Below are positions 1,473 through 2,988 of a stretch of DNA of 64,000 nucleotides, in pieces (position 1 is the first letter of the stretch; every line of letters begins with the position of its first letter). The translations under genes were made by a program, and so were the position numbers. Under the pieces are notes generated by a model. That model saw only the letters and a program-made list of their open reading frames with translations. It was not told the DNA's origin and did not search any database. Origin of the DNA: an uncultured Erysipelotrichaceae bacterium (lineage in GTDB: Bacteria > Bacillota_I > Bacilli_A > RF39 > UBA660); assembly GCA_902789225.1 (NCBI GenBank), contig CADANC010000001.1:201438-265437 (forward strand), read 5' to 3'.

Positions 1473-1502
1473 AAAAAGAATAGCTTTTGCTATTCTTTTT
1501 TT
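1473..1502. terminator. Bidirectional terminator (A-run, hairpin, T-run)
   Basis: aaaaagaatagc-tttt-gctattcttttttt. It lies between the plus-strand units and the minus-strand gene ending at 1501. Confidence 0.55.
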
Positions 1503-1830
1503 AATCTTCTTTCAAATATCCTGCAGCTTCATCAATGAAACTCATAATATTATACTTTTTCGTCTCATCAGGATATTTATCTGCTAATTTATATAGTTCG
1601 TCTACGAATTCTCTTGATGGACAAATTTCAATAATTTCTCTAAATATTTCACTAAGCCAAACAAATTCTTCAGAAGTACATTCGTTTTTAAGATATTTTA
1701 TCGTTTCATTAATATCTTCAGTTACAATTTCAACTTCCTTTTTCCATAGTTCTTCATGCTTATAGCTATCATTAATATCCATAGAATTTAGTTCTAGTAT
1801 AATATTTTTAAATTTTTCTTTAAAACTCAT
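1501..1830 (-). CDS. Candidate immunity protein for the adjacent EndoU-like toxin (small acidic cytoplasmic protein)
   Basis: 109 aa with no signal peptide. Its start overlaps the toxin stop by 4 nt (ATGA). The call rests on position; the protein is not recognised by sequence. Confidence 0.45.
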   Translation of the reverse strand: MSFKEKFKNIILELNSMDINDSYKHEELWKKEVEIVTEDINETIKYLKNECTSEEFVWLSEIFREIIEICPSREFVDELYKLADKYPDETKKYNIMSFIDEAAGYLKED

Positions 1831-2318
1831 TTTATTTTCCTCCTTATTGCTTTAGATTGATCAGAGTCTGGAAAAACTGTTCCTATTTTACCATTAGTCT
1901 TTATAACCCCAACTCTAACTCCTTTATAATTTCCATATATAATTTCACCGCTTTTAGATTTTCTATTACTTTTAAGCCCGGCTACATGTTCTCCAGCACG
2001 TCTAATATCTTTCTCAGACCAAGTTTTTGGAAACCAAGCTTGATTAATCCCCTGACGTTTAGTTTTATCTTTGTGATTAGGTATATTACCAACTCTAACA
2101 CCATTAATGTACGTTTTAACAACATTATACTCTATGTTGTATTTATTTAAAAGTTGTAATCCCTTTTCTCCATGTCCACCACTTTTCAAACGTATTTTAT
2201 CATTCCTTCGTGTTGGTTTTGTAAATGCTCCTTCGCTAGAATGAACCAATGCATAATCACTAACAGTTCTTGCACTTCCTTTAGTATTTAAATATCTTCC
2301 TATTTTAGTTGTTCCCAT
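1827..2318 (-). CDS. Stand-alone EndoU-family RNase toxin domain (polymorphic-toxin C-terminal-domain-like)
   Basis: The start is taken at the internal ATG at 2318 (MGTTKIG...), 4 nt after the upstream stop and 7-8 nt after the SD aagaggag. The tracked ORF extends further to 2420. Motifs SGGHGEKGLQLL, AWFPKTWSEKDIRRAGEHV and GKIGTVFP resemble bacterial EndoU toxin domains as I recall them. Confidence 0.5.
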   Translation of the reverse strand: MGTTKIGRYLNTKGSARTVSDYALVHSSEGAFTKPTRRNDKIRLKSGGHGEKGLQLLNKYNIEYNVVKTYINGVRVGNIPNHKDKTKRQGINQAWFPKTWSEKDIRRAGEHVAGLKSNRKSKSGEIIYGNYKGVRVGVIKTNGKIGTVFPDSDQSKAIRRKIK

Positions 2319-2322
2319 GATG

Positions 2323-2988
2323 TTATCTCCTCTTTTGTGTTGTCCAATCATCGAATTGGATAAAATTAGTTTTTTCTTTGAACTCATCAAAAACAACTGA
2401 TGGCATAGATCCATATACAATTACACATCTTGGTTCTATTTCATCTAACATTACGCGTAGTCCATCTCGCAAATAATGTTTTTCTTCCTTACCTTGATTG
2501 CAGCCATAAGTTCCTATAGCTACAATACTATGTTTAGGAATTCCTAAAAAAGCAAATTTTTCAGGTAACACAGATGTGGTATAACTTCTTTCATCTCCCC
2601 ATCTACAATTAGGTATTACATTTACACCGTGTTCTTGAAAATAATGAGCTAAAGCTCTGCTTTTATATACATTACCTATTTGAACAATTAAAGGACTATC
2701 TATATAAACAGAATTATCTAAAGATATTATTCCTTTAAATTTTTTGAATTCTTCAATGTAAGCATCAGGATTTACTAATACATCTCCAAATTCCAAAACA
2801 TTTTCATAAAAAACTATATACTCATCATAATTAGTACTTTTATTCCTTTGACTAAAAGGAATAACTTTTGTTGGTAATGGTGGATTAGTATCCTTAACTA
2901 TTGGAATTTCTAACTCACCATCAAAAAAAGCAGTTTCTACCAATTCAGGATTAAATCCATCATCTATTTTAGTTTTTATCTTTGCCAT
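2323..2988 (-). CDS. Hypothetical protein (possibly DUF4417-like), first gene of a three-gene operon
   Basis: 221-aa ORF. Its stop is 4 nt before the toxin start codon. The domain assignment is from memory only. Confidence 0.4.
   Translation of the reverse strand: MAKIKTKIDDGFNPELVETAFFDGELEIPIVKDTNPPLPTKVIPFSQRNKSTNYDEYIVFYENVLEFGDVLVNPDAYIEEFKKFKGIISLDNSVYIDSPLIVQIGNVYKSRALAHYFQEHGVNVIPNCRWGDERSYTTSVLPEKFAFLGIPKHSIVAIGTYGCNQGKEEKHYLRDGLRVMLDEIEPRCVIVYGSMPSVVFDEFKEKTNFIQFDDWTTQKRR

Follow-up and report, generated by a model that had tools for sequence, protein, structure and literature searches.

Type VI secretion systems (T6SS) include gene trios in which an accessory gene (DUF4123/Tap, DUF1795/Eag or DUF2169) stands upstream of a variable effector-immunity pair and its product recognizes the conserved N terminus of the effector. 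Temperate phages also carry swappable toxin and immunity modules: the MuF toxins, with EndoU counted among their warheads (PMC5576092); the WXG-100 polymorphic toxin-immunity (PT-Imm) cassettes of M. abscessus, which combine helper, toxin and immunity genes near the lysogeny/attachment region (PMC8092301); and the Bxa toxins of Bacteroides (PMC11699363). EndoU domains are found as well in LXG toxins of the type VII secretion system b (T7SSb). We examined a stretch of 64,000 nucleotides (the window) from an uncultured Erysipelotrichaceae bacterium (GTDB lineage Bacilli_A, RF39, UBA660; assembly GCA_902789225.1, contig CADANC010000001.1, positions 201,438 to 265,437), in which the gene of a free-standing EndoU-type toxin lies between a DUF4417 gene and a small gene for an acidic protein. 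We interpret this trio, with a probability of about 0.6, as a complete cassette of a modular polymorphic toxin/immunity family that resides mainly on elements resembling prophages or integrative and conjugative elements (ICEs) in anaerobic gut and rumen bacteria. For gene order, we use D for the DUF4417 gene, E for the EndoU toxin gene and S for the third, immunity gene, and D, E and S together form the trio; surveyed loci carry numbers with the prefix L.

The cassette has features in common with each of these systems and differs from all of them. With the LXG/T7SSb EndoU toxins, for example those of a Bacillus pseudomycoides array (L026), it shares the EndoU clade, at about 53 to 55% identity, the family of the downstream immunity gene, and the pairing of a basic toxin with an acidic immunity protein. 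However, the window toxin has neither an LXG domain nor a long N terminus and starts with a 15-residue leader instead; DUF4417 rather than Lap- or WXG-type helpers precedes it, and the stand-alone form adds a basic tail. The swappable modules recall those of the MuF, WXG-100 and Bxa toxins, but the N-terminal domains of those proteins are absent, a Pfam search giving no match in the window toxin to the N-terminal MuF (SPP1 gp7-like) domain, and what stays constant is a very short tag together with a stand-alone DUF4417 protein. The upstream accessory gene is reminiscent of the T6SS trios, whereas there is no T6SS, the hosts are mostly Gram positive, and DUF4417 looks enzyme-like. The same domain, 25 to 35% identical, is found in phages, where it is often fused to a ParB-CTPase and its gene lies close to packaging genes or forms gene 1 in L5/D29-like mycobacteriophages.

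All three genes are on the minus strand of the window. The DUF4417 gene (2323..2988) encodes 221 amino acids and ends with a TAA at 2325-2323; after 4 nucleotides (CATC) comes the ATG of the toxin gene at 2318, with GGAG 8 nucleotides upstream. The toxin gene (1827..2318) encodes a basic protein of 163 residues, built of a leader (codons 1 to 15, MGTTKIGRYLNTKGS; 2274..2318), an EndoU_bacteria domain (Pfam envelope, residues 43 to 152; 1863..2192) and a basic tail (RRKIK). We favor the start at 2318 over a TTG at 2420 because the homologues all begin with MG(T/S) there. The toxin TGA overlaps the ATG of the third gene in an ATGA at 1830-1827, and this gene (1501..1830) encodes 109 residues that are predicted to be all helical. 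The isoelectric points (pI) of the two proteins are 10.5 and 4.5, respectively. A preliminary description of the locus, made from the DNA alone, had reported this three-gene arrangement, with the 4-nucleotide gap, the strong Shine-Dalgarno site at 2318, the ATGA overlap, and the motifs SGGHGEKG, WFPKTWSEKDI and GKIGTVFP in the middle protein; we found every one of them as described, and the observation is real. The upstream gene, which it had called DUF4417-like and translationally coupled to the toxin, is indeed DUF4417 by Pfam (PF14386, E = 1.3e-43). It had been taken for a mere neighbor, however, and here the survey shows otherwise: DUF4417 is the defining constant of the system.

The middle protein had been proposed to be an EndoU-type RNase toxin domain, and the profile match supports this well: it scores 62.0 bits against EndoU_bacteria (PF14436), far above the gathering cutoff of 25.3 (E = 9.3e-17), over profile positions 17 to 129 of 129. 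A search of 5.8 billion proteins returned 979 homologues, and among the 120 matches listed, all are free-standing proteins of 160 to 169 residues, 65 to 95% identical, with the same MG(T/S) start. Two histidines, H26 and H49, are conserved in at least 97% of 55 unique members, and T141 and T147 are nearly invariant. The active site of this group consists of two histidines and a Ser or Thr on the last strand (bioRxiv 10.64898/2026.08.28.747851), an arrangement that H26, H49 and a last-strand Thr of the window family appear to fit. The window domain is about 53 to 55% identical to the C termini of long toxins in B. pseudomycoides (400 residues), Butyribacter (at least 465 residues) and Listeria (cut at the contig end). 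Relative to LXG-borne domains, the free-standing proteins have about 25 extra N-terminal residues and the basic C-terminal tail. The free-standing form has its own start, a Shine-Dalgarno site, a conserved leader, a basic tail and a stable length. A Pfam-level profile scan of the 163-residue toxin found no LXG, Rhs, MuF, WXG or PT-TG domain and no signal peptide. The NCBIfam and PADLOC profile libraries gave no matches for the trio proteins, with zero families among the PADLOC-DB 2.0.0 defense models for all three at E values up to 1, and sequence searches against solved structures returned nothing significant for the three proteins or for the EndoU family profile.

The third gene is very probably the cognate immunity gene, judging from where its relatives are found. 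In three genomes (B. pseudomycoides, Butyribacter and Listeria), genes homologous to it come right after EndoU domains that end long toxins, of the LXG type and others, which upholds the earlier proposal that the overlapping downstream gene confers immunity. The family profile gathers 431 cluster representatives and has no Pfam model; the window protein is 35% identical to a 126-residue protein of L004 (E = 9e-19). Profile and structure searches with the window protein found no Pfam family, no structural neighbor and no DNA-binding domain, and the AlphaFold2 (AF2) model has 8 helices (predicted local distance difference test score, pLDDT, 88). Of the three genes, S evolves fastest: over 56 loci, the median identity to the window is 38% for S, 65% for EndoU and 52% for DUF4417. 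Some members carry tandem copies, with two or three units of about 105 residues per protein, e.g., P0312 (401 residues), P0313, P0322 and P0327. The B. pseudomycoides contig NUQE01000095.1 (L026, 3282-12219) is a dense LXG toxin array. It includes an LXG-EndoU toxin, the 400-residue EndoU-ending toxin (no Pfam LXG match) with its S homologue, a PT-TG/Tox-SHH toxin with SUKH-1, and an LXG-RNase A toxin.

A metagenome scan with a DUF4417 profile yielded 80 loci whose DUF4417 proteins are 50 to 96% identical to that of the window. EndoU stands alongside in 42 of them and not in 37. In these 37, where the sequence suffices, the same leader nearly always opens the gene beginning at the DUF4417 stop (L090 and L105 are exceptions), and a domain unrelated to EndoU comes after it: DUF6883 (13 loci, E = 5e-18), Ntox50 (E = 1e-27), Tox-REase-3 (E = 4e-17), the unassigned 'NPNDGRKRAPHPTLIGG' family (14 loci), or one of at least four further unassigned families. 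The leader follows the motif M-G-[TSA]-[GTS]-x-S-G-x-Y-x-N-T-K-G-S. Among 77 unique N termini encoded after DUF4417, G2 is present in all 77, G14 in 74, G7 in 72, T12 in 68 and Y9 in 68, with F in 3 more. Every synonymous codon is in use at the invariant positions, so selection acts on the peptide and not on the DNA. LXG-borne EndoU domains are without the leader, and in phage A25, where gp22 is a DUF4417 protein, gp23 has no clear leader. The statement in the preliminary description that the toxin lacks any trafficking domain therefore needs revision, since residues 1 to 15 are a leader common to at least eight unrelated toxin domain families encoded after DUF4417.

Each toxin type has its own downstream gene: Imm7 (E = 2e-40) after Tox-REase-3, and a DUF4926-like gene after DUF6883. 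The median pI is 10.4 for the leader-tagged toxins and 4.4 for the downstream proteins. Modules are exchanged even between close relatives of the window; in L052 and L053, DUF4417 is 94 to 95% identical, EndoU 74 to 77%, and S 67 to 69%. DUF4417 is kept beside at least 10 toxin clusters, usually with a start/stop overlap. Some leader proteins have C-terminal domains without a Pfam family (173-residue proteins of L063, L075, L079 and others; L041/L111; L086/L091; L127; L047), one of them with the pattern 'NPNDGRKRAPHPTLIGGKDPxVQCAG...SGHYRPN'; together with their unassigned downstream immunity genes, these are candidate new toxin families.

The three genes travel together. Across the genomes of 24 species, D, E and S are adjacent in 20 loci, wherever there is enough sequence, in the order D-E-S or, in L017, L018 and L021, E-S-D; the order E-S-D is also that of L094, a locus from the metagenome scan. 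In the contig contexts examined, the EndoU gene always lies between a DUF4417 gene and a small gene of 107 to 134 codons, and DUF4417 adjoins a toxin gene in more than 100 loci. The trio recurs in more than 70 independent loci, which excludes chance co-occurrence. The linkage, the shared leader and the swapped modules together argue for a polymorphic toxin system in which a short leader and a separate DUF4417 protein are what stays constant. Our yardstick for such systems was the definition of Zhang et al. 2012 (PMC3482391). As in that definition, a conserved N-terminal part, here the leader, is joined to varied C-terminal toxin domains, and a cognate downstream immunity gene changes with the toxin, Imm7 being one example. 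The definition also speaks of a large multidomain toxin with a recognized trafficking domain or secretion system; the cassette has no such toxin, and no secretion genes are conserved nearby. It is a cassette with the polymorphism and the immunity features of polymorphic toxins, not the large toxin with a known trafficking domain, and it matches no catalogued defense system.

DUF4417 itself is well defined as a family. The window protein scores 149.1 bits against PF14386 (gathering cutoff, 28.9) and also matches phrog_8680 and phrog_940; it has 385 homologues, and all 43 aligned relatives match PF14386. About 35 columns are invariant, including D91, S93, D97, Q103, N106, N127-x-RW-x-DERS135, E143 and G159-T-Y-G162. 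The AF2 model (pLDDT 84; predicted template modeling score, pTM, 0.85) is confident and has about seven strands in an alpha/beta fold. A search of the viral structures in BFVD placed three DUF4417 homologues first, followed by repeated weak matches to phage 'queuine tRNA-ribosyltransferase' (E = 7e-3; template modeling [TM] score, 0.43 to 0.51). These matches, and a ParB fusion that parallels DpdB-DpdA, raised the idea of a tRNA-guanine transglycosylase (TGT)/DpdA-like identity. The Foldseek match to a TGT in the PDB has E = 0.08, and hhalign against a canonical TGT alignment gave a probability of 0.25%, so we do not claim this identity. Longer DUF4417 entries of 250 to 292 residues, which we considered as possible toxin fusions, are really N-terminal start-call extensions or frameshift tails. 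Phages account for 491 DUF4417 records. Mycobacterium phages supply 384 of them, with the gene placed either as gene 1 in L5/D29-like genomes or in the right arm as a 'nuclease'; Streptococcus phages have the domain fused to ParB. In D29, PackMan, EricB and others, the gene 1 product is a homologue 25 to 29% identical, encoded about 550 to 1000 nucleotides from the left end and annotated as 'hypothetical' or 'nuclease'. DUF4417 has been listed as a phage-enriched fusion partner of ParB-CTPases, of unknown function (bioRxiv 10.1101/2025.10.10.680097), and a literature search for DUF4417 or PF14386 found nothing besides this 2025 preprint.

The cassette hosts include Clostridia, Lachnospiraceae, Ruminococcus, Bacilli, Atopobiaceae, Selenomonadales, Lentisphaerae and Fibrobacteres. 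In at least 42 loci, with any toxin type, genes for an XRE/CI-type helix-turn-helix (HTH) protein and an ImmA/IrrE (M78) peptidase lie directly upstream on the same strand; these loci include L004 to L009, L038, L041, L047 and about 35 others. Serine recombinase and Cro-like genes often flank the cassette, a layout of prophage or ICE control regions. Other neighbors are a Tn916-type integrase/Xis, AbiL-like AAA_21 plus RloB, PemK, HigB/HicB, a type I restriction helicase and a reverse transcriptase. The cassette typically follows an HTH and ImmA pair in regions of gut and rumen anaerobes that resemble prophages or ICEs, and the pair may be the element's repressor and anti-repressor or part of the system itself. 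An earlier scan of IMG/VR with a single sequence found nothing; the later scan with the DUF4417 profile detected trios on viral contigs (L042 to L045). In L046, a Tox-REase-3 cassette lies between portal and scaffold genes, the only locus in a MuF-like position.

How might such a cassette work? In our preferred interpretation, the constant parts are the DUF4417 gene and the 15-residue leader, and the toxin domain is exchanged along with its matching immunity gene. By analogy with its family, the EndoU domain would act as a metal-independent endoribonuclease on tRNA or rRNA. The acidic helical protein of 109 residues would bind the basic toxin and keep the producing cell safe, and coupled translation would make DUF4417 in step with the toxin. 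DUF4417 may then recognize or process the shared leader, and so handle the toxin during loading, activation or release, much as adaptor genes do elsewhere. We lean toward the mobile element as the agent that deploys the toxin, in preference to a secretion machine of the host, because the hosts include both single- and double-membrane bacteria and no secretion genes travel with the cassette.

Several observations weigh against this polymorphic toxin interpretation. No conserved secretion or particle genes stand beside the cassette in the surveyed loci, L046 alone being near portal and scaffold genes. In the window, the trio does not lie within a recognizable prophage and is without the HTH and ImmA pair, and a search of 50,697 deposited phage genomes gave no match to the EndoU protein. 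The presumed tie between DUF4417 and the leader is one of gene adjacency. The invariant D, E, R, N and W residues of DUF4417 suggest an enzyme or a specific ligand binder and not a passive chaperone, which fits poorly with an adaptor, and a Foldseek search of the PDB with the DUF4417 model was weak (best E = 4e-3, TM score at most 0.42, TIM-barrel-like).

We then considered that the trio may act inside the cell as a three-component abortive infection or defense module. DUF4417 would sense a phage and free or activate the leader-tagged RNase from its antitoxin, and translation would stop. Many phages carry their own DUF4417 or ParB-DUF4417 proteins, as the 491 phage records show, and the position just after the repressor and ImmA genes is a common site for prophage exclusion and defense genes. 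The AbiL-like, PemK, HigB/HicB, type I restriction and reverse transcriptase neighbors are in keeping with this, as is the presence of the same cassette in single- and double-membrane hosts, and a constant sensor with variable effectors is common among defense systems. However, no PADLOC model matches any trio protein, exported polymorphic toxins use these same toxin and immunity families, and a cognate immunity protein together with a conserved N-terminal tag is the signature of trafficked toxins. We regard a defense module as a serious rival, though the less likely reading.

A simpler possibility is a two-gene toxin-antitoxin (TA) pair, EndoU plus antitoxin, that stabilizes the islet or element by addiction, with DUF4417 as an unrelated traveler of phage origin. 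Indeed, E and S stay adjacent when the gene order changes to E-S-D, and the pair is small, cytoplasmic and located on mobile elements. By our yardstick, a type II TA system is an autoregulated two-gene operon whose antitoxin has a DNA-binding domain, but here S has no detectable domain of this kind, and a three-gene unit with the toxin first is atypical. A plain TA pair also has no role for the shared leader and does not account for the retention of DUF4417, usually with start/stop overlap, beside 10 or more toxin clusters. An addiction pair is therefore improbable in our view. Least credible, and close to excluded, is the orphan cassette suggested in the preliminary description, a C-terminal toxin domain with its immunity gene that was displaced from a full-length toxin of the LXG, Rhs or CdiA type or that awaits recombination into one. 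The same EndoU clade does end long toxins, and one trio (L001) lies 2 kb from an Rhs/Ntox44 gene, but this gene is separated from it by opposite-strand genes, no full-length toxin sharing upstream sequence is present at the trio loci, silent arrays of orphan toxin/immunity cassettes are absent from the window and the surveyed trio loci and found only in Bacillus LXG loci, the true orphan EndoU fragments of Bacillus cereus-group genomes (L032 and L033, followed by S homologues) are truncated and leaderless, and the large conserved family to which the window protein belongs is free-standing, with its own start, Shine-Dalgarno site, N-terminal extension and basic tail.

The polymorphic toxin interpretation can be taken one step further, to a version that we consider quite improbable. 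DUF4417 could be an enzyme acting on the leader, either modifying it or covalently joining the toxin to a component of the mobile element; the features involved might be the N-terminal Gly exposed after Met removal and the invariant Tyr9, Thr12 and Lys13. Attachment partners could be the packaged or transferred DNA, or a head or portal protein. Phages and ICEs would then ship exchangeable toxins into recipients along with their DNA, and the immunity gene, located in the early/lysogeny region, would rescue only those cells that establish the element. If true, this would be a new route of protein delivery, and DUF4417, which hundreds of phages encode and which is gene 1 in L5/D29-like mycobacteriophages, would gain a function.

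The surroundings of the trio in the window are variable. It lies between tRNA-His(GTG) (343..418, plus strand; ARAGORN, Rfam 57 bits), 1.1 kb away, and an mgtC-like gene. A DUF4300 lipoprotein-like gene (491-1327, plus strand; E = 8e-50) and a 107-nucleotide repeat separate the tRNA from the trio. In L052 to L054, the trio is at the same site and two segments are missing: 456-1471, with the DUF4300 gene and the repeat, and 3386-3920, with two repeat copies. In these relatives, the trio consequently abuts the tRNA, and the DUF4300 gene of the window is a separate insertion. The islet had been placed directly downstream of the tRNA, which thus holds for the close relatives lacking the insert and not for the window itself. 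A stretch of 96% identity (window 312-3461; 6858-10005 of L010, an uncultured Clostridium contig from a metagenome-assembled genome) comprises the tRNA-His, DUF4300 gene, repeat, trio and second repeat. L010 is a more distant genome and shares this segment alone; the housekeeping genes on either side are unrelated, and similarity stops precisely where the second repeat ends.

The repeat, of about 107 nucleotides, has three plus-strand copies (1328-1434, 3343-3449 and 3748-3854), the latter two with 89% and 64% identity to the first. Each is followed by its own terminator-like hairpin, and the folds are stable (z = -5.4, -2.5 and -2.2); no Rfam family matched. The copies lie in segments missing from relatives, so the repeat marks variable inserts flanking the toxin operon; a family of small RNA genes and the 3' end of mobile cassettes are two candidates for what it is. 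A candidate bidirectional terminator (1473..1500), a GC-poor 12-bp hairpin with A/T runs on both sides that a terminator scan picked up by consensus match only, sits right after the immunity gene stop and would close the operon. At the other end, a low-confidence candidate sigma-70-type promoter (3279..3307, minus strand; TAGACA-17-TAAGAT with TG) may drive the operon; the promoter scan found 17 sites against 17.7 expected, no excess over chance. On the plus strand, a near-consensus promoter (3111-3139, TTGACA-17-TATCAT) is followed by a strong terminator (3233-3260), and as predicted from these signals, 3111-3268 would give a transcript of about 120 nucleotides antisense to the probable 5' leader of the toxin operon. 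On the opposite strand, 3200-3274 has a weak match to the RatA antitoxin RNA (29 bits; threshold, 49; E = 0.57). We rejected a hydrophobic open reading frame of 56 codons (3184..3014) as a type I toxin, given that it has no ribosome-binding site and that the RatA match is far below threshold. Further along, a glmS ribozyme (7592-7742, minus strand; 68.7 bits) lies upstream of the glmS gene (5811-7568, minus strand), an ordinary and expected arrangement.

We saw no account of the DUF4417-leader-toxin association in the literature that was searchable (DUF4417, PF14386, EndoU with defense, DUF6883), outside of which such work may exist; a keyword check of Zhang et al. 2012 found no DUF4417-toxin association. 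The cassette family is widespread and apparently undescribed. What defines a polymorphic toxin is its trafficking part, and in this family the constant component has shrunk to a 15-residue tag accompanied by a separate, enzyme-like protein. The presence of the cassette on mobile elements across distant gut and rumen lineages points to an unrecognized mechanism by which toxins are handled, delivered or set off against phages. A further gain is a first functional handle on the phage-enriched DUF4417 domain, which about 500 deposited phage genomes carry. Several of the toxin domains, as well as the EndoU immunity family, have no Pfam family, and the leader motif with its DUF4417 anchor allows a systematic search for new toxin and immunity families.

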